The notes under the pieces: model-generated
What the model was told of the DNA's origin: nothing
Database searches by the model: none
What the model saw: the letters and a program-made list of their open reading frames with translations, nothing else
In this document: positions 5,962 through 14,325 of the stretch, one piece after another
Layout: every line of letters starts with the position of its first letter
Position numbering within the stretch: the first letter of the stretch is position 1
Translations under genes and position numbers: made by a program
Virus record (IMG/VR): IMGVR_UViG_3300033121_000823
Location: 83,348 to 130,801 of that record
Source of the DNA: a virus
Lineage: Duplodnaviria; Heunggongvirae; Uroviricota; Caudoviricetes
DNA length: 47,454 nucleotides
Strand: one strand, 5' to 3'

Positions 5962-6438
5962 CTAGACGTTAATCACGTTGTCATCATTTTCTGATTCTTG
6001 TGGAGTGTCCAAATCCCCCATTTGTGGAGCATCCAAATCGAAACTGAATTGCGAGACAATATCTGCGATGGCTGCCTTATTCTTTCCACGTCTGGCAGGA
6101 CTTGGCAATTGTTCGTCCAAGAACTTCTCGACTTTCTTTTCAAACGCCTTAAGGTCATCGGTCCGCTTGTGGAGCTGCCAATCCTCTAGGGTACGTCTAT
6201 GCTTTTCATACAAGCTTTTTGCCATTGCATTGCGAGTATTACTCACAAAGGTGGACAATCCTTGGCAGCCGCCCCGTTCGTCCACTTCATATGCAGTCCC
6301 CAATTCAGCATTGAGAATAATCGCAATCTGACCAATGGTTTTCCCGGCTGCTGTTTCGCGTTTCCAGATTGGAAGAAACGCATTAACATCGACAGACTTA
6401 CCCCGCGGTTTACGTGTTCGGTTCAAATTCATACACAA
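5962..6438 (-). CDS. Putative DNA-binding protein (HTH-like N-half, acidic tail)
   Basis: Basic N-terminus, AGKTIGQIAIILN (HTH-like pattern), acidic C-terminus; function inferred. Confidence 0.7.
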   Translation of the reverse strand: MCMNLNRTRKPRGKSVDVNAFLPIWKRETAAGKTIGQIAIILNAELGTAYEVDERGGCQGLSTFVSNTRNAMAKSLYEKHRRTLEDWQLHKRTDDLKAFEKKVEKFLDEQLPSPARRGKNKAAIADIVSQFSFDLDAPQMGDLDTPQESENDDNVINV

Positions 6439-6490
6439 TTCCCCTTACAAAGAAACTAAACAACTCTATCCAAAGCTAGCAACGTGCTAG

Positions 6491-6808
6491 CTATTTTACA
6501 CTGTAGTGAAAAGCAGACTCCCTTAACTTGTCGAGAATAATCTTATAAAAGATTACTCGACGTTCCGTTCTACTCAATCTTCGACCGTTTCGCCGAAAAT
6601 GTTTTCGTTGGGAAAACCTTACGATATTCCCATTTTCCATGACAATCCCAGTTTTTAGCTGGGACGCAATTCCATCTCGCAATTTTCGATGTTCAAAACT
6701 TTCTGCCTTAAAGGCAGGATAAGTGAACACGCGAACTGCTTTCCTTAATTCTTTTAGGACGTCACTTGTCGCAACAGTCCTTTGAACACTCTGTTGAGTA
6801 TCCATCAT
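6491..6808 (-). CDS. Basic hypothetical protein (105 aa)
   Basis: Directly downstream of tandem promoters; Arg/Lys-rich C-half. Confidence 0.7.
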   Translation of the reverse strand: MMDTQQSVQRTVATSDVLKELRKAVRVFTYPAFKAESFEHRKLRDGIASQLKTGIVMENGNIVRFSQRKHFRRNGRRLSRTERRVIFYKIILDKLRESAFHYSVK

Positions 6809-6817
6809 TATGTCCCC

Positions 6818-6920
6818 ATTGTACTAGCTACTTCCCATCGACGCAAGGGGTGTTTTTCATTCTCACAACCCCCGTTTCCATGCCCCTATTCTACTAGCTT
6901 GTTCCCTATCATGCAAGGGG
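6818..6920 (-). promoter_or_regulatory. Two tandem sigma70 promoters (70-bp duplication), CCCC-TTG class
   Basis: CCCC-TTGCAT-17-TAGAAT (6888-6920) and CCCC-TTGCGT-17-TACAAT (6818-6850). Confidence 0.75.
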
Positions 6921-6954
6921 TGTTTTTTATTCACCCCTAACCATTCCCCCCCTC

Positions 6955-7266
6955 ACAAGTGTATTTATACTATGTCCTTCCCGGTGAGGATACCCCCCAT
7001 CCGGCGGCGGGTCTGGATTGGCTGGTACAAAACCCTTTATTATACTTTCTACATTCCAATAAGTCAACACCCCCCGTCTGGCGACGGAAGTAGGTTAGCT
7101 AACTCGTTTTTTCATTTATTATACTATCTTGCTCCCTGGCTGGCTACCCCCCCATTTGGCGAAAGGACTATATTGGCTGAGTCAATCCCCTATTTGGCGA
7201 ATGGGTTAGGTTAGCTGTGACATAAATAGTCACCCAGAAACGTCCCACCGCCAATTACGGTAGGAC
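6955..7266 (-). repeat. Regulatory cassette A: hairpin, 4 x 38-bp unit, 3 promoters
   Basis: 13-mer boxes at 7018, 7095, 7173, 7211; -10/-35 pairs at 6964/6987, 7039/7062, 7118/7141, each 17-nt spaced; hairpin 7242-7266. Confidence 0.75.
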
Positions 7267-7282
7267 CAGACGACTTTAGAAA

Positions 7283-7471
7283 CTACTTGGCGTCATTCAA
7301 ATCGGCAAACAGTGTTTCACTGAAAAACTCTCGCCGTCTTGCAGCCAACACATCGGGCGGAATCATTGGTTGGCACTGTTCATGTTGGCCTTTGGTGCGA
7401 TATGATTCGCGACCAAAGGACGTACGGATATCCGGGATACCTGGAGCCACAAAAATTTGCGTAGCAGTCAT
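7283..7471 (-). CDS. Hypothetical protein (62 aa)
   Basis: GGAGG SD 6 nt before ATG. Confidence 0.7.
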   Translation of the reverse strand: MTATQIFVAPGIPDIRTSFGRESYRTKGQHEQCQPMIPPDVLAARRREFFSETLFADLNDAK

Positions 7472-7579
7472 GACAATCCTCCAAAGAACTAACCAAGATA
7501 TACTCGAAGTGAGTATAGCTAAGTAGATTCTTCGCGGACCTGCCCAACAGGATGGGCAGGTATGGTTTGACGGTGTGGA

Positions 7580-7837
7580 TTATCCTACCCAACTTATGCG
7601 GTATCGTCCATATTCACATGTTTCGTCAAGATTAATTAGGTCGAAATTGTCGACCCCTAATGCGAAAACTTTAAATCCTCCATTCTCAAGTCTTTTCCTC
7701 AATTCCTGATTTAGGATTACACCCGAGATACCAAACTCCCCCCTGTTGGCTGCCCTTGCAATCCTTTTCTTAATTTTGGAAAAAGAGTCCTGATTTCTCT
7801 TTTCAATCGCTCGACTCCTCGCTTTCGATGCATCCAT
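7580..7837 (-). CDS. Hypothetical protein; start revised to MDASKAR at 7837
   Basis: GAGGA SD 8 nt upstream; ASKAR...IKKRIARAANRG...LENGGFKV...RISW resembles a common small phage protein pattern and loosely the 3450..3728 gene. Confidence 0.7.
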   Translation of the reverse strand: MDASKARSRAIEKRNQDSFSKIKKRIARAANRGEFGISGVILNQELRKRLENGGFKVFALGVDNFDLINLDETCEYGRYRISWVG

Positions 7838-7868
7838 TGTACTATCCTCATCCCGAAAAAACAAGGGG
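7836..7868 (-). promoter_or_regulatory. sigma70-type promoter overlapping a translation start
   Basis: CCCC-TTGTTT-17-TACAAT; the -10 overlaps ATG 7837. Confidence 0.55.
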
Positions 7869-7905
7869 TAGTTTAGTCGTCCCATTGACTCCATTAACCG
7901 CCCTT

Positions 7906-8130
7906 ACAAGTGTATTTATACTATGTAGTTCCCTAGCTCGCTACCCCCCGTATGGTGAAAGGAGTAAGTTGGCTAACTCGTTTTTTCATTTATTATACTA
8001 TCTACCTACCTGACTAACAATGCTACCTTTGGCGAATGGGATGACTTGGCTGGGACAATAGCTCGTTTGGCGACGCAAGTAGGTTGGCTGAGCCAACAAA
8101 GAAACCCCGCTGGAGCGTCCTCCAACGGGG
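7906..8130 (-). repeat. Regulatory cassette B: terminator, 3 x 38-bp unit, 2 promoters
   Basis: Boxes at 7969, 8046, 8084; -10/-35 at 7915/7938 and 7992/8015; terminator 8097-8130. Confidence 0.75.
8097..8130 (-). terminator. Intrinsic terminator
   Basis: CCCCGTTGGAG-GACG-CTCCAGCGGGG followed by TTTCTTTT. Confidence 0.8.
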
Positions 8131-8481
8131 TGGGTCTTAATCTCGGACCATTGGTCGCCCACTCCAATGTGCCCATAGCCGATATTATTGGGCTACCACT
8201 CTTATCGGCGTGGAGTGGCAATCCCTTCAGTTGGGACCGTCGCGAATATACACTAATCTTCTCCTGACATCGTTGACTTGTATCAAACTCTCTGCTGGGA
8301 ACTTTTTTTTAGTTCATCGTTGATTGACTCGTTGCATAGCGGCGACTATGCATCCACTTGCCAAGTGGCGTTTACGGTTAATTCGAGTTTAGTCAATCTC
8401 TCGATGCGAGATAGAGTTTCGTCAGTTTGGGTTAGTCCCCCTAACCCTTCATCACTGTTCTCTATGATATTCTCCCTTACA
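8097..8481 (-). ncRNA. Candidate ~385-nt structured non-coding RNA, family not recognised
   Basis: Bounded by promoter (-10 at 8488-8493) and terminator; no credible ORF; about 11 stems read by eye plus a 7-bp loop-loop complement (8178-8184 with 8203-8209). Confidence 0.6.
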
Positions 8482-8487
8482 GGATTG

Positions 8488-8695
8488 ATTGTACTAACTA
8501 GGTCACTGGCTTGCTACCCCCCATATGGCGGCGGGTCTGGTTTGGCTGACTCAAAACTATTCATTATACTTGCTTGTTACCTAACTAACTATCCCCCATT
8601 TGCCGAATAGGTTAACTTGGCTAATACAATCACCCACTTGGCGAATGGGTTAGGTTAGGTAAGTCAACGAAGAGACCCCGATTTCTCGGGGTCTC
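8488..8695 (-). repeat. Regulatory cassette C: terminator-like hairpin, 3 x 38-bp unit, 2 promoters
   Basis: Boxes at 8542, 8617, 8655; -10/-35 at 8488/8511 and 8563/8586; 10-bp GAAA-loop hairpin 8672-8695. Confidence 0.75.
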
Positions 8696-8709
8696 AGTTG
8701 GTTCAGTTG

Positions 8710-8916
8710 CTACTTCACTTTCACAACCTTACCATCTTTCAACTCAACCTTGGCGTACCAAGTGTGAGGCTTCGGATAATGCGGTCCTCCGACCGCAGTT
8801 GTTCCGTTCTCGGGAACTGTCCCGAGTCCAGGGGCAAACACACTGACAGATTCTCCGGAAGAAACGGCCTCTTTTAGAGCCTTCTTTGTCTTGAAGTTTG
8901 GCGATACGTAGAACAT
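8710..8916 (-). CDS. Small hypothetical protein; start revised to MFYVSPNF at 8916
   Basis: GGAG SD before ATG 8916; KTKKALKEAV...GGPHYPKPHTWYA...KDGKVVKVK. Confidence 0.75.
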   Translation of the reverse strand: MFYVSPNFKTKKALKEAVSSGESVSVFAPGLGTVPENGTTAVGGPHYPKPHTWYAKVELKDGKVVKVK

Positions 8917-8986
8917 GTTTTGAACTCCAAAAACACCCATGAGAACCTGCCCCACATTGGGGCAGGCTATTTACCGACTTCCACTA

Positions 8987-9190
8987 CTACTTCTTGTCCT
9001 CCCATTCCTTAATGCCATACTGCTTCGCAGTCTGGGCAGTCGTGATTTTCTCCCACCCCGCCTCCGTTGGGGACATATTGCGACCGCACGCCAGACAACG
9101 CGTTCCGTTGCGTCTTGCCATCACTACCTTGGAAATCATACGGCGAGCACCACAATCGCACACATGCAGAATCGACAATCCCTTAGCCAT
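8987..9190 (-). CDS. Small zinc-ribbon protein; start revised to MAKGLS at 9190
   Basis: GGAG SD 8 nt upstream; CDCG...CLACG cysteine pairs. Confidence 0.7.
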   Translation of the reverse strand: MAKGLSILHVCDCGARRMISKVVMARRNGTRCLACGRNMSPTEAGWEKITTAQTAKQYGIKEWEDKK

Positions 9191-9233
9191 CGGAAAATCT
9201 CCAAACAAGTTAAAGTTTCTGACCACTGTGACC

Positions 9234-9363
9234 ATTGTACTTTCTACCTAACTAACTAACTACCCCCAGATTGGCGAAAGGGGTATATTGGGTGAGTCAA
9301 TCCCCCATTTGGTGAGGGGAGTAGGTTGGGTATGCCAACGAAAAAGCCCCGCTTTCGCGGGGC
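9234..9363 (-). repeat. Regulatory cassette D: terminator, 2 x 38-bp unit, 1 promoter
   Basis: Boxes at 9288, 9326; -10/-35 at 9234/9257; terminator GCCCCGC-GAAA-GCGGGGC-TTTTT at 9341-9363. Confidence 0.75.
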
Positions 9364-9372
9364 GAGTTTCTC

Positions 9373-9567
9373 TTAATATCCGATAATTCTATCGAAGATA
9401 AGAGGATAGAAAAAACTGTCTGCCCCGCAGACTAATTCCCCTGATTCCCTACCGTTTACATACGATAGAAAATCGTTATGTGGGATTCGTCGTAAGAACG
9501 CTCGTTCTTTTTTCTTTTCAATTTCAATCTCTTCCGCAATCATCCCAACTTGAAACCATGTCAACAT
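9373..9567 (-). CDS. Hypothetical protein; start revised to MLTWFQVG at 9567
   Basis: GGAGG SD; N-terminus nearly identical to 9982..10197. Confidence 0.7.
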   Translation of the reverse strand: MLTWFQVGMIAEEIEIEKKKERAFLRRIPHNDFLSYVNGRESGELVCGADSFFYPLIFDRIIGY

Positions 9568-9584
9568 ACTTCTACCTCCAAAGA

Positions 9585-9607
9585 GGGGCGAGCAAACCAC
9601 TCGCCCC
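9585..9607 (-). promoter_or_regulatory. Leader hairpin GGGGCGAG-TGGTTTG-CTCGCCCC
   Basis: Perfect 8-bp stem just upstream of the SD; near-copy at 9945-9967. Confidence 0.65.
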
Positions 9608-9621
9608 GAGTTCGTGAAACA

Positions 9622-9834
9622 CTACTTCCCGTTGAATCGGTCGGCCCATTTTTGGGCCGTTTGCCGTTTCTCGTCCATTGGTTCAGTTCCCTCCCATAAG
9701 AGGAAACACTTCAGCGGAACCCGTCGCATCTTTCGGTCGAGTCCGATAACCTCAAAACCGGGTTTCGGCTCATCCACTCGTTCAACCGTTGCCGTACCAA
9801 CTAGGAACTCTTTTCCTTCATACATTCCAACCAT
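9622..9834 (-). CDS. Hypothetical protein; start revised to MVGMYEG at 9834
   Basis: In frame with track ORF 9622..9900; follows the stop of the 28-aa ORF by 1 nt. Confidence 0.65.
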   Translation of the reverse strand: MVGMYEGKEFLVGTATVERVDEPKPGFEVIGLDRKMRRVPLKCFLLWEGTEPMDEKRQTAQKWADRFNGK

Positions 9835-9835
9835 C

Positions 9836-9922
9836 TTACTTTCCCCTATACAGAATCTCGAAGTAGACGCACGCACAAGCGTACGCCATAAACCCGCCAA
9901 GAAACCAAGCCAACCACTCCAT
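9836..9922 (-). CDS. 28-aa single-TM protein MEWLAWFLGGFMAYACACVYFEILYRGK
   Basis: AAGGA SD upstream; hydrophobic core with basic tail. Confidence 0.6.
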   Translation of the reverse strand: MEWLAWFLGGFMAYACACVYFEILYRGK

Positions 9923-9944
9923 TAGTATATTCCTTTATCCAAGA

Positions 9945-9967
9945 GGGGCGAGCGAACCACTCGCCCC
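9945..9967 (-). promoter_or_regulatory. Leader hairpin GGGGCGAG-TGGTTCG-CTCGCCCC
   Basis: Copy of the 9585-9607 hairpin. Confidence 0.65.
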
Positions 9968-9981
9968 AAGTTTCTTAACGA

Positions 9982-10197
9982 CTATTCACTCATGTTTACC
10001 TCGACTCTTATACACGCCTTCCAAATTGATTGCTTGCTCAAAGTATTCTGCGTACTGTCCTCCAAGTGTTCCATCATCATTTCTAGGCCAGCAAAGAACT
10101 CGACTGCCGCTTCCTTTGACGGGAAAGATGGAATTCCAAGATATTCACGCTCGACAATCGCTAGGGCAATTACCCCAGCTTGAAACCATGTAAACAT
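9982..10197 (-). CDS. Hypothetical protein (71 aa)
   Basis: MFTWFQAGVIA start; GGGGA SD. Confidence 0.7.
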   Translation of the reverse strand: MFTWFQAGVIALAIVEREYLGIPSFPSKEAAVEFFAGLEMMMEHLEDSTQNTLSKQSIWKACIRVEVNMSE

Positions 10198-10216
10198 GCT
10201 ATTGTCCCCTAAAAGT

Positions 10217-10265
10217 GGGGGGAAAGAACCATTTTCCCCCAGTTTCGTTTCGTCATGGTTCGACG
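10217..10265 (-). promoter_or_regulatory. Two-hairpin element with complementary 7-nt loops
   Basis: CGUC-GAACCAU-GACG then GGGGGAAA-AUGGUUC-UUUCCCCC on the minus strand. Confidence 0.55.
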
Positions 10266-10272
10266 TTTCCGA

Positions 10273-10737
10273 CTAGGATAGTCGGATAGTTTCCGTAAAC
10301 TCGCGAAGGAACCTTAGTTCCCCCGCTTCTGTGGGGGATTCGATAATCCCCTCTGTTTCGTCCGCTCCAACCTGATGGGTTATCGGGATTTTATCCCAGT
10401 CCCCATTGAATTGGGCGGCTAGACAATTTTGGGCTTTAGCCCAATTTGCTAGCTTATCCAAGTTGGGGGGAACTACCGTCCACCCTTTCGCCCCTTCTAC
10501 CCACAGAATGGAGCGAATAGCTTTGGCTAGTTCTAGCTCCCTTTCAAACTTCTCAGTCTGGTCGATACTTTTCTTGTGAGAGTTATTGTTAACCCATTCC
10601 GTTACATGAGTTTCGGCAGGGTCAACCTGAATAATTTTCCCATATAGGGGATGTTTTGAGATACGGCAGATAACCGTATCACCACCGTAAATTTCTCCAT
10701 ACCCCTTCTTGGGGACTTCCCTATAGCCTATCAACAT
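10273..10737 (-). CDS. Hypothetical protein (154 aa)
   Basis: Overlaps upstream gene by 7 nt; no motif recognised. Confidence 0.75.
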   Translation of the reverse strand: MLIGYREVPKKGYGEIYGGDTVICRISKHPLYGKIIQVDPAETHVTEWVNNNSHKKSIDQTEKFERELELAKAIRSILWVEGAKGWTVVPPNLDKLANWAKAQNCLAAQFNGDWDKIPITHQVGADETEGIIESPTEAGELRFLREFTETIRLS

Positions 10738-11066
10738 TCAAAACCTCCCTCCCCCAACTGGGGGACTTCTTGCTTCTCCCTCTTAGGGGCAGGAGATTTC
10801 CCCAACTTGTCGGGGGGAATAATATCCCCTAGACTTTCCACTACTTCCAGACTTCCGTTCATTCTGTCGAACCGATATGAACGGAATGTTACGCCACCCC
10901 TTCGGAGTGTACCTACGTCGATATATTGCTTACCGACATAGGAAACTTGCCCCTTTACGGGATAGGGATTAGATAGGACTATCCTATCCGTCCCATCCTT
11001 TTGGGGAAACGTACTTATCTTTTGATAAGTAAACTCTACCCATTCCCCTACGCTGGGGATTATCAT
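10731..11066 (-). CDS. Hypothetical protein (111 aa), first gene of the leftward block
   Basis: GGGG SD before ATG; beta-rich N-part, low-complexity C-tail. Confidence 0.7.
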   Translation of the reverse strand: MIIPSVGEWVEFTYQKISTFPQKDGTDRIVLSNPYPVKGQVSYVGKQYIDVGTLRRGGVTFRSYRFDRMNGSLEVVESLGDIIPPDKLGKSPAPKREKQEVPQLGEGGFEC

Positions 11067-11513
11067 GTCAATGCCCCTATCTGTTGATTGTGTACGCTAC
11101 TCGCCCATACTGTTCCCCTAGCCCATGTGTAAAGCTAGGGTAATGTGGCGAGTCTCAAGTTGTGAAAGAGCGAAGCGGGGCATTCTCTCGCCCCGCGTTC
11201 TGATTTTATCGGCGAGTCAACAGTTTGGAAATAGGGTATTTTCCAAGTTTCTTGTAACTTATTATCCCGCAATAGTTTACGTCGCGAGAATTCCGCAAAA
11301 ACGCCTAGACTGGACATTTGGTATTTAGTAATTCGTCCCATTAGTGTATCGCTAGTTCGGATGGGTTTATCCCCCCCATTCTATTTCCCCCGTTCGGGTG
11401 GGTTTACCCCCCAAAAAATGCCGGGGGTTCCATCAACAATACACGTATTTCATACATATTGTATCACCCAAACTACTCCTTTCATCAACCGTAACTCACG
11501 CCCCAACTTATGC

Positions 11514-11557
11514 TTACGCACTTCAAAGTTGCAAAATATAATATTCCTACATATATA
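11514..11557 (+). promoter_or_regulatory. Possible sigma70 promoter(s) for the phage sigma gene
   Basis: TTACGC-17-TATAAT (11514-11542) and TTGCAA-17-TATATA (11529-11557). Confidence 0.45.
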
Positions 11558-11592
11558 CTTAGAGGAATTTAATATATTAATAGGAAAAAAAT

Positions 11593-12150
11593 ATGCACAT
11601 TACCCCACAACAACTAGAAGAGATAGAAAACGTAGCTAAAAGGCTAGCACCAAAATACGTCTTTCCAGGTTATGACCTAGAGGATATTATTCAGGAAGCT
11701 ATTATCATTGGCCTTAACAGTTTTCAACTGTATGATGAAAGTAGAGGAACTTTTTCCGCCTACATGTATGTCCATATTAATAATCGTTTAAAGACGCTTA
11801 AGCGCGACAAGTACTATAGGCCGCTTCCAATGAATTGCAAGGAATGTTTAGGGGCAAAGAGTTCCGTAAATGAAGATGAGTTATGCCCAACTTGCCAGAG
11901 CAGGGCAAAACGTAATGAGACAAAACGTGGAATCGCATCACCAGTTAATATTGGCGAAATTGATATTGAGGAAGCTCGCGTCGAAGACGCGTTAGAGATT
12001 GAGGAAGCTAGGCAAAAAATTGCCGATAAGCTTCCAATGGATATGCGCGAAGACTACCTACGTATGCTCGATGACTTCTACGTTCCAAAGGCCCGCCGTC
12101 TATTAATAGAAGAGGAAATAAGAGGAATTTTACATGAATCAACCGAATAA
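11593..12150 (+). CDS. Phage sigma-factor-like protein with Zn-ribbon insertion
   Basis: Region-2 pattern EDIIQEAIIIGL...YDESRGTFSAYMYVHINNRL..LKR; CKEC-x12-CPTC; helical C-terminus. Confidence 0.8.
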   Translation: MHITPQQLEEIENVAKRLAPKYVFPGYDLEDIIQEAIIIGLNSFQLYDESRGTFSAYMYVHINNRLKTLKRDKYYRPLPMNCKECLGAKSSVNEDELCPTCQSRAKRNETKRGIASPVNIGEIDIEEARVEDALEIEEARQKIADKLPMDMREDYLRMLDDFYVPKARRLLIEEEIRGILHESTE

Positions 12151-12916
12151 ACGCGGCCCTTGGTCAGCCGAAGAAAAAATGTATATGGAGGAAAACGCCG
12201 CCCGTTTAACTCCAAAGCAAATGGGCGAATATTTACAGCGCGACCCAGAGGCCATTGAACGCTATATCAAGGGCGGAATGTACGGACAGAATCAACGTAC
12301 TATAAAGACGGCTGAAAATTACCTACTCCGTTCCCCAACCTGGGAGGACTTAAAACAACAATTCACAAAGGAAGAATTGGATATGTTCTTATATCATTGG
12401 GGCCGAATTATAAGTCAATTCAAGGATGACGTGCTTCCTACGGAAGAATTGCAAATTATAGACACAATTAAGTTGGATATTCTCATGAATCGTATATTGC
12501 GAACACAGTATGAAACTAATAAGACAATTAGTGAACTCGAACTGAAGATGGTGCAAACGGCCGACCTTAACCTCCTAGACAACTACAATCGGCAGTTAGG
12601 GATATTGCGTGCATCCTTGTCAAACACGGATAAGACATACCAAGACATGCTTTCCAAGAAAGAAGGAATCCTCAAAAGCATGAAGGCAACGCGTGATTCG
12701 CGCGTAAAGGTTGCCGAAAATTCGCGCCAGAACTTCACGATGTGGCTCCGCCAAATAATAGAAGATAAGGATACTAGGAAGGAACTTGGCCTATACCTCG
12801 AAAAGATGCGTATAGCAACAGAGTTCGAAATACGGCGACTATCCGAGTATCACAAATACGCGGACGGCGCACTAGACCAACCATTACTAAATGCGGAGAC
12901 CGCGAACCATGAATAA
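12134..12916 (+). CDS. Putative terminase small subunit (Myb/SANT-like N-terminus, coiled coil)
   Basis: KRGPWSAEE...Myb-like start; position upstream of TerL; TerS role is positional inference. Confidence 0.5.
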   Translation: MNQPNKRGPWSAEEKMYMEENAARLTPKQMGEYLQRDPEAIERYIKGGMYGQNQRTIKTAENYLLRSPTWEDLKQQFTKEELDMFLYHWGRIISQFKDDVLPTEELQIIDTIKLDILMNRILRTQYETNKTISELELKMVQTADLNLLDNYNRQLGILRASLSNTDKTYQDMLSKKEGILKSMKATRDSRVKVAENSRQNFTMWLRQIIEDKDTRKELGLYLEKMRIATEFEIRRLSEYHKYADGALDQPLLNAETANHE

Positions 12917-13889
12917 GACGGCAATAATCACCGGAATTACCGGCCAAGACGGGTCATACCTTGCGGAAAACTTGTTAGGGCGCGGCTATAAGGTAGTTGG
13001 CGTGAAACGGCGTAATTCAACGGCTAACACTGGCCGCCTCCGCAACATAATGACACACGCAAACTTCTATCTGGAAGAAGGCGATATAACAGATTCCTCT
13101 TATGTATTTTCTTCTCTATTAACTTATAAGCCAACTCACATTTTTAATTTAGCTGCCCAAAGCCATGTAGCAACATCCTTTCATCAACCTATGTTGACGT
13201 TTGACGTTACTGGGAAGGCAGTCCTGAATTATTTGGAAGCAATAAAATTGCTATGTCCGAGCACCCGATTCTATCAAGCTTCTTCCTCGGAAATGTTTGG
13301 AAGCTCGGTTACTCGTCAAAACGATGAAGCCTTCCAAAATGAATCAACGCCATTTATGCCACAATCTCCTTACGCTGTTGCGAAGCTATCAGCTCATCAC
13401 TTAGTCCGTTTATATAGAGAGTCCTATGGACTATTCGCCGTTAGTGGAATCCTATTTAATCACGAAAGTGAAAGAAGGGGTGACCTGTTTGTAACAAAGA
13501 AAATTACAAACTATGTTAGGTCGCTACGCGATGGCACTCAAAAGTTTTATCTAGAACTCGGTAACATGGATGTATTCCGCGATTGGGGACATGCCGAAGA
13601 TTATGTTGAGGCAATGAGATTAATGATAGAAGCCGACGAACCGGACGACTTCGTCGTTGGCACTGGCGAAACACACAGCGTACGCGAATTTGCCGAAATA
13701 TCCTTCTCGTTAATAGGGAAAAAATCAAGTGATTACATCCATATAAATAAAGAATTATTTCGGCCCTCCGAAGTAAACTTCTTGCGCGCGGACGCACGAA
13801 AGATTCGCGAAAAACTAGGGTGGCAGCCAAAAATATCTTTCGGCGACCTCATAAGGAGAATGCTCAATGATAATACTTCAGGATATTAA
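12909..13889 (+). CDS. gmd: GDP-mannose 4,6-dehydratase
   Basis: TGITGQDGSYLA, NLAAQSHV, YQASSSEMFG, SPYAVAK, GILFNHES, RDWGHA; start placed at MNKTAII. Confidence 0.95.
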   Translation: MNKTAIITGITGQDGSYLAENLLGRGYKVVGVKRRNSTANTGRLRNIMTHANFYLEEGDITDSSYVFSSLLTYKPTHIFNLAAQSHVATSFHQPMLTFDVTGKAVLNYLEAIKLLCPSTRFYQASSSEMFGSSVTRQNDEAFQNESTPFMPQSPYAVAKLSAHHLVRLYRESYGLFAVSGILFNHESERRGDLFVTKKITNYVRSLRDGTQKFYLELGNMDVFRDWGHAEDYVEAMRLMIEADEPDDFVVGTGETHSVREFAEISFSLIGKKSSDYIHINKELFRPSEVNFLRADARKIREKLGWQPKISFGDLIRRMLNDNTSGY

Positions 13890-14325
13890 GGAAAAGATAC
13901 CGTGGGACTTCACGCTTTACAGTGATGTTTCGGCGCAAAAAGTTAAATACATGAAGACTGGCGACTACACGGTTGAAGGTCACGAAAAATCAATATGTAT
14001 TGAAAGAAAGCGAACGACCGGCGAAATATCTTTAAACCTTGGTAGTAAATATAAGCAATTTAAGGATGAATTTGACCGTATGCAAGCCTTTGAACACCGT
14101 TTTGTAATATGTGAATTTCCACTATGGTTAATAATGGACTTCCCAAAGAATTCCGGCATTCCAAAGTTTAAGTGGAAGTATTTACGGGTAAATGGCAAGT
14201 TTCTATACAACCGCTTCATGGAACTATCTAACGAATATAATGTTCCCGTATGCTTTACAAATTCCTCGCTAGAAGCGCAAGACCTAGCAATAGCCCTAAT
14301 AAGAGATAGAGTATGTCCAACATAA
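13867..14325 (+). CDS. ERCC4/XPF-type PD-(D/E)XK nuclease
   Basis: TGDY...ICIERK motif followed by F.DE.DRM. Confidence 0.8.
   Translation: MIILQDIKEKIPWDFTLYSDVSAQKVKYMKTGDYTVEGHEKSICIERKRTTGEISLNLGSKYKQFKDEFDRMQAFEHRFVICEFPLWLIMDFPKNSGIPKFKWKYLRVNGKFLYNRFMELSNEYNVPVCFTNSSLEAQDLAIALIRDRVCPT

Follow-up and report, generated by a model that had tools for sequence, protein, structure and literature searches.

A 2.4-kb stretch of a Caudoviricetes phage genome carries 12 copies of a 38-bp unit, all on the minus strand, which are arranged with terminators and promoters into four modular cassettes and are more strongly conserved in related metagenome phages than the genes that they flank. The phage is IMG/VR record IMGVR_UViG_3300033121_000823 (130.8 kb, and only about 69% complete), and the window analysed here is a 47,454-nt stretch covering positions 83,348–130,801 of that record. 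The phage is present in samples of the JACCDG/JACCDT metagenomes and of the runs SRR33465452-3, DRR623196 and DRR623199. Judged from the DNA, the unit is predicted to be a sequence-specific protein site, likeliest that of an activator, coupled to promoters of the main host sigma factor and carried within exchange cassettes that resemble the promoter-early stem-loop (PeSL) cassettes of other phages; we give this reading about an even chance of being correct.

The 38-bp unit and the anatomy of the cassettes

Read on the minus strand, each cassette consists of a terminator, two units and a promoter, followed by zero to two additional unit-promoter pairs (Table 1). This gives one, two, two and three promoters in the four cassettes, as an earlier note on this DNA had described. 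There are no orphan units, as each is followed directly by a promoter or by a single further unit that itself leads into a promoter. A GC-rich, stable hairpin opens each of the four cassettes (−20 to −26 kcal/mol, z −3.3 to −5.5), and the promoters follow these hairpins within 76–230 bp. The 3' arm of the second hairpin in cassette 1 is formed by the start of the first unit, and a compensatory change is found there in the relative L038. Between this cassette and a 105-aa ORF (6491–6808) sits a pair of promoters of the ordinary early type and, counting these two, five promoters are stacked within 400 bp. Promoter P3b is directed into an ORF-free cargo of 373–385 nt (about 8100–8488).

Table 1. 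Features of the four cassettes and of the adjoining ordinary promoters, in window coordinates and in minus-strand order.
Feature	Position	Strand	Details
Cassette 4 terminator hairpin	9346–9363	−	7 GC pairs, then TTTTTCG; −19.9 kcal/mol, z −3.6
Cassette 4 units, adjacent pair	9301–9338 (distal), 9263–9300 (proximal)	−	47.7 and 45.5 bits
Promoter P4	9234–9262	−	TAGTTA, 17 bp, TACAAT
P4 predicted targets	8987–9235; 8710–8955	−	zinc-ribbon ORF, 67/82 aa; 81-aa ORF
Cassette 3 terminator hairpin	8672–8695	−	10-bp stem, tail UUCGUUG; −23.4 kcal/mol, z −5.5
Cassette 3 units, adjacent pair	8630–8667, 8592–8629	−	matrix scan
Promoter P3a	8563–8591	−	TAGTTA, 17 bp, TATAAT
Cassette 3 third unit, alpha subtype	8517–8554	−	beta-subtype unit at the same place in relative L007
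Promoter P3b	8488–8516	−	TAGCAA, 17 bp, TACAAT
Cassette 2 terminator hairpin	8104–8131	−	12 pairs, tail TTCTTTGTTG
Cassette 2 units, adjacent pair	8059–8096, 8021–8058	−	both without G-run
Promoter P2a	7992–8020	−	TTGTTA, 17 bp, TATAAT
Cassette 2 third unit, beta subtype	7944–7981	−	matrix scan
Promoter P2b	7915–7943	−	TAGCGA, 17 bp, TATAAA; predicted target 85/104-aa ORF 7580–7894
Cassette 1 hairpins, two	7242–7266, 7217–7233 (span 7217–7266)	−	
Cassette 1 units, adjacent pair	7186–7223, 7148–7185	−	matrix scan
Promoter P1a	7118–7146	−	TAGCCA, 17 bp, TATAAT
Cassette 1 third unit, beta subtype	7070–7107	−	matrix scan
Promoter P1b	7039–7067	−	TTGACT, 17 bp, TATAAT; 11/12 consensus positions
Cassette 1 fourth unit, alpha subtype	6993–7030	−	matrix scan
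Promoter P1c	6964–6992	−	TATCCT, 17 bp, TATAAA
Two ordinary early-type promoters	6818–6916	−	CACCCC-TTGCAT-17-TAGAAT; CACCCC-TTGCGT-17-TACAAT

The unit consensus on the minus strand is nnG-N4-A(G/C)C(C/T)AA-N3-A-N2-CC-N3-C(G/A)CCA-N3-GGGGG, and each unit starts at the higher coordinate of its interval in Table 1. The box starts listed in the earlier note (7018, 7095, 7173, 7211, 7969, 8046, 8084, 8542, 8617, 8655, 9288 and 9326) proved to be the + strand ends of these 12 units, and the spacing given there holds, being 38 bp between adjacent units and 75–78 bp across an intervening promoter. When the consensus proposed there was searched with a spacer of 10 (not about 11) and at most two mismatches, it recovered all 12 units among 15 matches in the window, compared with 0.75 expected, and none of 100 shuffles reached 15. 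In a genome scan with a weight matrix derived from the 12 window copies, the units score 37–53 bits and the next best site 18.6 bits, the best site in shuffled genomes reaching 16.5 bits; no further units were found in the other 128 kb of the phage record. This agrees with the suggestion that the motif is specific to a phage lineage. Similarly, two DNA patterns searched against IMG/VR gave only two chance single matches, a two-unit pattern searched in the genomes of 185,579 species gave 17 single matches, about the chance number, and no unit arrays, and DNA comparison with a phage GenBank collection gave no match.

Among 26 distinct units from the window and its relatives, mean column identity is only 77% and paralogous units are only about 50–80% alike, yet eight columns are invariant, including A8, C10, A12, A13 and A17. 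Unit subtypes exist, alpha and beta among those named. An inverted thirteenth unit at 11459–11496 (17 bits, one mismatch to the earlier consensus) was treated as doubtful: it overlaps a minus-strand TGnTACAAT promoter, is without a G-run, has its next −10 box 40 bp away instead of 23, and its second core is not kept in a relative. A coding repeat was also rejected. A + strand ORF (6972–7214) does span cassette 1, but 38 is not divisible by three, and L038 and L040 shift the frame through changes in G-run length.

The sequence TTGGCTGAGCCAA at 8084–8096 is, as had been stated, a perfect 5-3-5 palindrome. The step from a near-palindromic unit to a dimeric regulator, however, finds no support in the 26 distinct units, in which the palindrome is perfect in two, reaches four of five pairs in eight, and shows a mean pairing of 55%; its left arm is not conserved, with G3 as the only invariant position. 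No other symmetry centre in these units is better than 5-3-5, and the dyad expected of a dimeric operator was not found in them. The unit resembles a direct repeat instead, with GCCAA at positions 9–13 and 26–30, and by our own reading of the column alignment its conserved blocks have a period of about 8 bp and not of one helical turn. With blocks so spaced and no convincing dyad, the unit fits no familiar regulator geometry, which counts against the protein-site reading.

Conservation in relatives and exchange of cargo genes

Conservation of the motif in related phages, which the earlier note had named as a check, is pronounced. Between the window and a relative, identity is 93.5% for the units (391/418), 85.0% for the −35 to −10 promoter segments, 82.0% in the remaining intergenic DNA and 77.1% in coding DNA (Fisher p 3e-17 for units versus coding and 7e-8 versus intergenic DNA). 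Within the unit, the motif core diverges by 3.5% and the remaining positions by 10.2% (p 0.008), which argues for position-specific selection. The units of cassette 1 give the same picture, being 94–97% identical across three relatives, and the cassette 4 pair is identical to that of relative L007 at 38/38 and 35/38 positions. Distal units are conserved as well as proximal ones, and one distal unit is 38/38 identical. No orthologous cassette has lost its weak TAG-type −35 boxes, though one A-to-T change would give TTG, and the number of promoters per cassette is unchanged in the relatives.

All of the cargo proteins are orphans; the ten ORFs beside the cassettes belong to no Pfam families, have just two weak matches in PHROGs and have few homologues. 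When cargo was compared between relatives, three gene slots were found to differ, with breakpoints at or inside cassettes, as in the PeSL shuffling that the earlier note had cited. In the slot between cassettes 3 and 2, positions 8133–8505 of the window and 3437–4419 of L007 are unrelated, and the breakpoints fall inside cassette 3 and, on the right-hand side, at the cassette 2 terminator. On the upstream side of cassette 1, the first unit is where homology with L038 begins, and in the slot after cassette 2 a protein of 104 aa faces one of 105 aa that is just 36–40% identical over part of its length. With cargo that differs in relatives and breakpoints at their borders, the cassettes thus behave like PeSL promoter-terminator cassettes. 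The contigs of the relatives break at the cassettes, and one of them, L008, starts and ends in the same unit-promoter module, an arrangement that repeat-bounded assembly explains as well as would the mini-circles that arise in PeSL systems when flanking cassettes recombine.

It is conceivable that the units have no binding partner and are pure PeSL-like homology patches held similar by gene conversion. Differing cargo at the cassette borders is consistent with this, as are the unit-promoter blocks that recur between cassettes at 61–85% identity and a comparison with relative L040, in which cassette 1 is 94–100% identical to the window and the gene behind it 72%, pointing to recent exchange; the conservation of PeSL modules over about 100 bp has itself been proposed to serve recombination (PMC2839356). 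What gene conversion leaves unexplained, however, is why the core diverges three times less than neighbouring positions of the same unit, why promoter spacers tens of bp away are much less conserved, or why paralogous units as dissimilar as these share eight invariant columns. We assign this explanation a low probability. Part of the high unit identity could be due to frequent recombination or gene conversion of the cassettes.

Promoter register and the predicted role of the unit

All eight cassette promoters have a −35/−10 spacing of 17, and in six of them the −35 box departs from the consensus (five TAGnnA and one TATCCT); both features had been claimed previously and were recovered here. 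A consensus promoter scan passes only three of the eight. The −10 boxes are TAYAAW in all cases with AG in front, and in this they match the 11 ordinary early promoters of the phage, which are of the GACCCC-TTGACA type, implying that the same sigma factor is used and that only the upstream part differs. The units keep a fixed register with these boxes, the distance from the end of the promoter-proximal unit to the −10 box being 23 bp in six promoters and, in the other two, 24 and 25 bp. The proximal unit covers about −73 to −36, ending right at the −35 position; ahead of it, at the first promoter of every cassette, lies a second unit at about −111 to −74. Such a register points to a role in transcription more than to replication iterons or a partition site.

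From the anatomy, statistics, conservation pattern and cargo exchange we infer that a protein binds the unit, and we derive a likely sign and source for it. The predicted binder would dock on the unit directly upstream of the −35 position and, as an activator, would replace −35 recognition at weak, conserved TAG-type boxes that have a good −10. The cassette genes would thereby form their own expression class, delayed-early or middle. The cassettes also double as homology patches for cargo exchange among related phages, so that a swapped-in gene inherits terminator, predicted operator and promoter. The binder is probably phage-encoded, given that the motif is limited to one phage lineage and to 2.4 kb. 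A more specific proposal, which we put forward tentatively and which is rather less likely to be right, is that the units are docking sites for a phage factor of no known family, standing in for the −35 at host-polymerase promoters, that swapped genes automatically join a timed regulon, and that output is set by the stacked pairs.

The main alternative for the sign of regulation is that binding of this sort represses the promoters or shuts them off. A good −35 (TTGACT and TTGTTA) is present in two of the eight promoters, which are nevertheless preceded by units, and a repressor or a general enhancer fits this as well as an activator does. If a repressor or shut-off factor used the unit as its operator, bound units flanking tandem promoters could occlude or loop them, silencing strong early genes later. 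Units do lie on both sides of five of the eight promoters, those separated by a promoter are about 7.1–7.4 helical turns apart and so roughly in phase (adjacent ones are not), and the five promoters in 400 bp at cassette 1 suggest high expression that possibly needs shut-off. Operators usually overlap the core promoter, however, whereas here the unit sequence ends at exactly −36; the last promoter in a cassette is flanked by a unit on only one side, and the weak TAG-type boxes, unneeded in a pure repressor model, are kept by selection. We consider repression unlikely.

The unit could also be part of an extended promoter read by RNA polymerase itself, either carrying one of two phage sigma-like proteins or being a phage-modified host enzyme, with no separate regulator. 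Sigma-70 region 2 is found in two proteins of the phage (window 11593–12150, + strand, and genome 48418–48567, − strand), the unit opens with a TTGACT-like hexamer followed 17 bp on by TCGCCA, and similarly contains AGCCAA and, after 17 bp, ATGGGG; the ordinary promoters of the phage are likewise conserved well beyond both hexamers. Yet promoters of a phage sigma factor should be found genome-wide, and the units are confined to 2.4 kb. TTG is absent from three unit subtypes, positions within the supposed spacer are invariant, the distal units are largely out of the usual reach of RNA polymerase, and the −10 boxes are those of the ordinary early promoters. No phage RNA polymerase gene was found in the record (about 69% complete) with PF00562, for which the controls worked, or with PF00940, for which the controls were also silent and which thus had no positive control. 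An extended promoter is, in our judgement, distinctly unlikely. A search of IMG/VR for relatives with the sigma protein as query found none.

For a phage-encoded binder acting at these promoters, Pfam searches of the 131-kb record (about 69% complete) with HTH_3, HU/IHF and Ogr/Delta gave no match while the controls worked, and a search with the MotA C-terminal domain gave no match, with the control genomes also silent. The zinc-ribbon cargo protein was considered as a binder and is not supported, its distant homologues sitting in contigs without units; its AlphaFold model (pLDDT 58) is too poor for fold comparison.

A host global regulator might instead read the unit, for example Spo0A as in phi29, tying expression to host physiology. 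The + strand of 6/12 units contains TGGCGAA, one mismatch from the 0A box TGTCGAA (PMC2731898), and the phage capsid protein has a distant likeness to its counterpart in Bacillus phage G. A Spo0A site, however, consists of two such boxes 3 bp apart (PMC2731898), and each unit has a single imperfect box with no second one at that distance. In addition, 4/22 units have A in place of the G in the CG core, and Spo0A has no need of the invariant A8, C10, A12, A13 and A17, making this a very improbable explanation.

Slighter still is the probability that the units act as RNA, whether the role is that of a hairpin, of a processing site or of a target for the ORF-free transcript next to them. Where promoters stand in tandem, transcription from the upstream one runs through the unit between them, and unit 8096 and its orthologue show a change that preserves a small stem. 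Against this, RNAalifold found no consensus structure in 26 units, a stem between C-run and G-run is no better than in shuffles (469/500 reach the observed value), duplex energies between units and the 8100–8488 transcript equal those of shuffled units, and a terminator precedes the first two units in every cassette. No known RNA families or tRNAs were found in the window.

Comparison with known systems

PeSL cassettes have been described in T4-type phages (Arbiol et al. 2010, PMC2839356; Comeau et al. 2014, PMC4122927). Like them, the cassettes described here are composite repeated modules that combine a stem-loop or terminator with a sigma-70-like early promoter, lie among small orphan genes in a variable region, and are conserved over about 100 bp or more, with insertions and replacements between close relatives ending in the modules. 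Unlike PeSL cassettes, they add one to four 38-bp units between terminator and promoter, their −35 boxes are mostly weak where PeSL promoters have a strong consensus, and they carry up to three tandem promoters (five with the ordinary ones). The upstream DNA also differs, being AT-rich in PeSL cassettes and here a GC-containing 38-bp unit ending in a G-run. The phage itself may fall outside the T4 type; its capsid protein bears only a distant resemblance to that of Bacillus phage G.

Activator-dependent phage promoters include the late promoters of P2 with Ogr, Mu Pm with Mor, and the middle promoters of T4 with MotA/AsiA. The A3 promoter of phi29 also belongs here, as it depends on p4 and has no usable −35 box (PMC2731898). 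Six of the eight cassette promoters share with this group a good −10 and a poor −35, together with a conserved element at a fixed distance upstream that would take the place of the −35, and probable use of the host polymerase. The element differs in being 38 bp long, asymmetric, stackable and situated inside mobile cassettes; its sequence matches none of the sites of those activators, and no activator gene was recognised in the record of this phage (about 69% complete).

Sites of AraC-type class II activators such as araI are about 38–40 bp long, extend from roughly −73 to −35 and contain direct repeats. The unit is similar in length, in abutting the −35, and in having direct and not inverted repeats, but this is an analogy of geometry only, as the spacing of its GCCAA repeats is 17 bp inside a unit and 21 bp from one unit to the next, whereas that of the araI repeats is 21 bp within the site, and no AraC-family gene was identified. 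In the host-takeover module of Bacillus phage SPO1, small early genes are densely packed and each group has its own strong promoter and terminator; SPO1 also encodes sigma factors for later classes. The phage studied here has a comparable run of small genes with promoter and terminator groups, and it encodes two sigma-like proteins. No repeated operator-like unit is known to us in front of SPO1 promoters.

If the unit is indeed a regulator site, the 38-bp motif would provide a direct handle on a novel phage transcription factor, with the practical limit that both phage and host are uncultivated. Promoter-terminator cassettes that shuffle orphan genes are already known, and those described carry plain strong promoters. 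Here the mobile cassette also bears a repeated element under stronger constraint than the surrounding proteins; were this element a regulator site, regulation too, and not just expression signals, would move between phages as a module.

Organisation of the cassettes and their surroundings

Read on the minus strand, the four cassettes all open with a GC-rich hairpin of high stability, at -20 to -26 kcal/mol and z values of -3.3 to -5.5, and two of these hairpins pass a terminator scan. In every cassette the hairpin is followed by two adjacent copies of the 38-bp unit and then by a promoter; cassettes 3 and 2 have one extra pair of unit and promoter each, and cassette 1 has two. The parts follow the rule terminator, unit, unit, promoter, (unit, promoter) x 0 to 2, which bears out the 1, 2, 2 and 3 promoters per cassette claimed in an earlier note on this DNA, and every unit belongs to a cassette. 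From the end of each promoter-proximal unit to the -10 box there are 23 bp in six cases and 24 or 25 bp in the others. The -10 boxes are TATAAT, TACAAT or TATAAA, each with AG just before it, and the hexamers 17 bp upstream are TAGTTA (twice), TAGCAA, TTGTTA, TAGCGA, TAGCCA, TTGACT and TATCCT. Most of these -35 boxes had been described as weak, and a consensus promoter scan indeed accepts only three of the eight promoters. Different cassettes have blocks in common (promoter and unit, or two units and terminator) at 61-85% identity, and the unit subtypes, each present once or twice per genome, are combined differently across the four. Since whole blocks are shared, the cassettes are mosaics of one another.

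In those spacers of unit-linked promoters that the table lists (e.g. TAGTTAGTTAGTTAGGTAGAAAG), AG recurs every 4 nt from -35 to -10, which places TAG stops in all three frames. On the plus strand, the listed junctions between a promoter and the next unit read TTGGCT, 16-17 nt, then TATACT or TATTAT. These promoter-like sites point backwards and combine the unit box with the neighbouring -10 box read in reverse; they could produce antisense transcripts or be a by-product of fixed module length.

Coordinates of features (window positions unless stated otherwise)
Feature	Position	Strand	Details
Cassettes 4 to 1	9363-6960	-
G+C-rich island	~6000-14000		43-48% G+C
Protein with sigma-70 region 2	11593-12150	+	185 aa
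Second protein with sigma-70 region 2	genome 48418-48567, outside window	-	~154 aa
Ordinary early promoters (AG before -10)	1568, 3775, 6825, 6895, 7843	-
Spacers with AG every 4 nt	9240-9262, 8569-8591, 8494-8516, 7998-8015, 7124-7147	-
Backward promoter-like junction sites	7018-7046, 7969-7996, 8542-8570	+
Degenerate unit	11459-11496	+	17 bits
Cargo, possible non-coding RNA	8100-8488	-
Direct repeats	11350-11410	-	two copies
M(L/F)TWFQxG family, window	9373-9600, 9982-10197
M(L/F)TWFQxG family, contig L007	1332-1463, 1736-1954

An IMG/VR virus record of 130.8 kb, estimated to be ~69% complete, ends with the 47.5 kb of the window. Small genes without known families occupy the minus strand up to ~11.1 kb, and plus-strand genes take over at 11.4 kb, packaging and structural genes coming after the sigma-like gene; the capsid protein distantly resembles that of Bacillus phage G. 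The second sigma-like protein also has a clear region-4-like helix-turn-helix, and the presence of two such proteins points to a phage sigma factor cascade of the SPO1 kind. Two direct repeats, GGGGGG(T/A)TAAACCCA(C/T)CCGAAC, stand where the early and late gene blocks diverge. The G+C content of the genome is ~35%, and the island of higher G+C includes, besides the cassettes with their orphan genes, a sugar epimerase gene and the sigma-like gene. A zinc-ribbon cargo protein has distant homologues in contigs of 46-57% G+C, suggesting import from phages of higher G+C content. A family of small paralogous proteins starting M(L/F)TWFQxG differs in copy number between the window and its relative. 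Each gene of this family comes after a GC-rich hairpin (GGGGCGAGTGGTTYGCTCGCCCC), so the UGGUU 'loops' pointed out earlier fall within these hairpins, ahead of the genes.

Conservation of the 38-bp unit

A weight matrix made from the 12 copies scores the units at 37-53 bits, against 18.6 bits for the highest-scoring other site anywhere in the 130.8 kb and 16.5 bits for the best in 20 shuffled genomes, and the units are limited to 2.4 kb of the genome. The consensus of the earlier note (spacer of 10, at most two mismatches) held, recovering all 12 units among 15 sites where 0.75 were expected. Exact-pattern scans of IMG/VR gave two single matches without unit arrays and then none, and no DNA matches were found in the phage GenBank collection. 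A two-unit pattern run over metagenome contigs gave 17 loci, with 4-8 units each on contigs L006, L007, L008 and L020; in the genomes of 185,579 species it gave 17 single matches, close to a rough chance estimate and none with further units. Homologues of the 105-aa protein behind cassette 1 provided four more unit-bearing contigs, L038-L041. L007 and L006 overlap at 98% identity, both have the same units as L020, and the stretches of the window to which the three align adjoin and overlap. As a composite relative they are collinear with the window from 11509 to 1272 at ~75-87% identity and have the same four cassettes, 12 units and 1, 2, 2 and 3 promoters. All unit-bearing relatives form one lineage.

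Conservation of the motif, proposed earlier as a check, was found in this relative, whose units are 93.5% identical to those of the window (391/418), compared with 91.8% for terminators, 85.0% for promoter segments from -35 to -10, 82.0% for other intergenic DNA and 77.1% for coding DNA (units versus coding DNA, p 3e-17; units versus other intergenic DNA, p 7e-8). Within the units, the 21 motif core positions diverge by 3.5% and the 17 others by 10.2% (p 0.008). When cassette 1 is compared with three relatives, the units are 94-97% identical, the promoter spacers 72-100% and the gene behind 72-87%. Only tens of bp separate these spacers from the units, so the identity gap cannot stem from a more recent common ancestry of entire cassettes. 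Purifying selection acts on the units in a position-specific way. Every orthologue also retains the TAG-type -35 boxes, which are one substitution away from TTG.

In an alignment of 26 distinct units from the window and relatives, eight columns never vary (G3, A8, C10, A12, A13, A17, C25 and C28) and two more, C27 and A29, hardly do, identity averaging 77% per column; most units end in a run of five to seven G. The 13-bp near-palindrome of the earlier note is perfect in only two of the 26, with a mean pairing of 55% and a left arm that is essentially free except for G3. What recurs instead is a direct repeat, GCCAA, at unit positions 9-13 and 26-30, with a distance of 17 bp between copies inside a unit and of 21 bp from one unit to its neighbour, and the dimeric regulator drawn from the palindrome thus loses its basis. 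A thirteenth unit, inverted and degenerate, lies ~100 bp before the sigma-like gene in the window; it has no G-run, overlaps a minus-strand TGnTACAAT promoter-like site and is conserved in the relative in its left half only.

A putative regulator of the stacked promoters

The unit is likely a protein site. As a coding repeat it fails, since 38 is not a multiple of three and an overlapping plus-strand ORF shifts frame in relatives. The units match no known RNA family or tRNA, contain no conserved hairpin and are not complementary to the neighbouring ORF-free transcript. They are probably not promoters for a phage polymerase, no gene for which was found (by PF00562 with working controls and by PF00940 without a positive control), or for a phage sigma factor, since the two sigma-like genes would need genome-wide promoters; the motif is local, and its invariant bases fill the would-be spacer. 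The heptamer TGGCGAA, which differs from the 0A box at a single position, occurs in half of the units. Real Spo0A sites consist of two 0A boxes 3 bp apart, and the units are not good Spo0A sites, as their invariant columns differ from those of the box.

Eleven ordinary early promoters, all on the minus strand of the whole genome, follow a highly uniform pattern, wwwwGACCCC-TTGACw-N14-TAG-TAYAAT, in which the hexamer before the -35 box is GACCCC or CACCCC, preceded by a T/A-rich stretch. At 6825 and 6895 alone does this GACCCC form the 3' arm of a hairpin, and at the other sites it appears to belong to the promoter. The -10 boxes and preceding AG are identical in the unit-linked and ordinary promoters, implying that the same (host) sigma factor is used and that only the part upstream of -30 differs. 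We infer that a regulator would be bound at the units, most simply an activator compensating for the weak -35 box. The marks of such a regulator here are an element that covers about -73 to -36 and keeps a fixed distance from the -10 box; weak -35 boxes maintained by selection; and another unit, no less conserved, that extends from about -111 to -74 and is largely out of reach of the polymerase. The main alternative is a repressor that shuts off the stacked promoters: five of the eight promoters have units on both sides, and units also precede both promoters with good -35 boxes.

Whether activator or repressor, the putative unit-binding factor may well be encoded by the phage, as suggested by the limitation of the motif to one lineage and one locus. 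Searches of the phage record (~69% complete) for HTH_3, HU/IHF and Ogr/Delta gave no matches, with controls that worked; a search for the MotA C-terminal domain gave none either, its control also being silent everywhere. Since all relatives are of one lineage, co-occurrence with the motif offers no way to pick out a binder. An obvious suspect is the zinc-ribbon protein encoded behind cassette 4. However, the distant homologues of this protein follow ordinary promoters that lack units, and its structure model is too poor for a search.

Cargo exchange and comparison with PeSL cassettes

When cargo was compared between relatives, as the earlier note had proposed, three slots were found to differ among close relatives. 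The slot between cassettes 3 and 2 is filled in the window by 373 bp that contain no sense-strand ORF of at least 30 codons, and in L007 by 983 bp of unrelated sequence encoding ORFs of 86 and 72 aa. On the left, the two sequences part inside cassette 3, past the first -10 box, and the last unit of that cassette belongs to the alpha sequence class in the window and to the beta class in L007; on the right, the break falls at the base with which the terminator stem of cassette 2 begins. Behind cassette 2, the protein of 104 aa in the window and 101 aa in the composite relative has its place taken in L040 and L008 by a 105-aa protein that is 36-40% identical to it over ~60 residues. In L038 the gene preceding cassette 1 is unrelated, and homology to the window starts at the first unit, whose 5' end is the 3' arm of a hairpin preserved in L038 by a compensatory change. 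L040 and the window share 94-100% identity in cassette 1 and only 72% in the gene that follows it.

This window cargo between cassettes 3 and 2 (see table) has two promoters and a strong terminator. It contains no sense-strand ORF wholly inside it, no Rfam family and no tRNA; two sense-strand ORFs of at least 30 codons run into the terminator and units. This cargo may be a non-coding RNA.

In the promoter-early stem-loop (PeSL) cassettes of T4-type phages, recombination between promoter and stem-loop modules inserts, deletes and replaces orphan genes (PMC2839356, PMC4122927), and cargo replacement at the cassettes described here behaves in the same way. The PeSL-like gene shuffling suggested earlier is thus supported by the three differing slots and by breakpoints bound to cassettes. 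The 1082-bp contig L008 starts and finishes in the same module of beta unit and TATAAA promoter, which enclose two cargo genes. The contig may be an assembly fragment bounded by repeats; a circular molecule of cargo and cassette, of the PeSL mini-circle kind, is the less likely reading. In structure and evolution the cassettes agree with PeSL, while the plain strong promoter of PeSL is absent, and what is new is a stackable, strongly constrained 38-bp unit added to a PeSL-like cassette.
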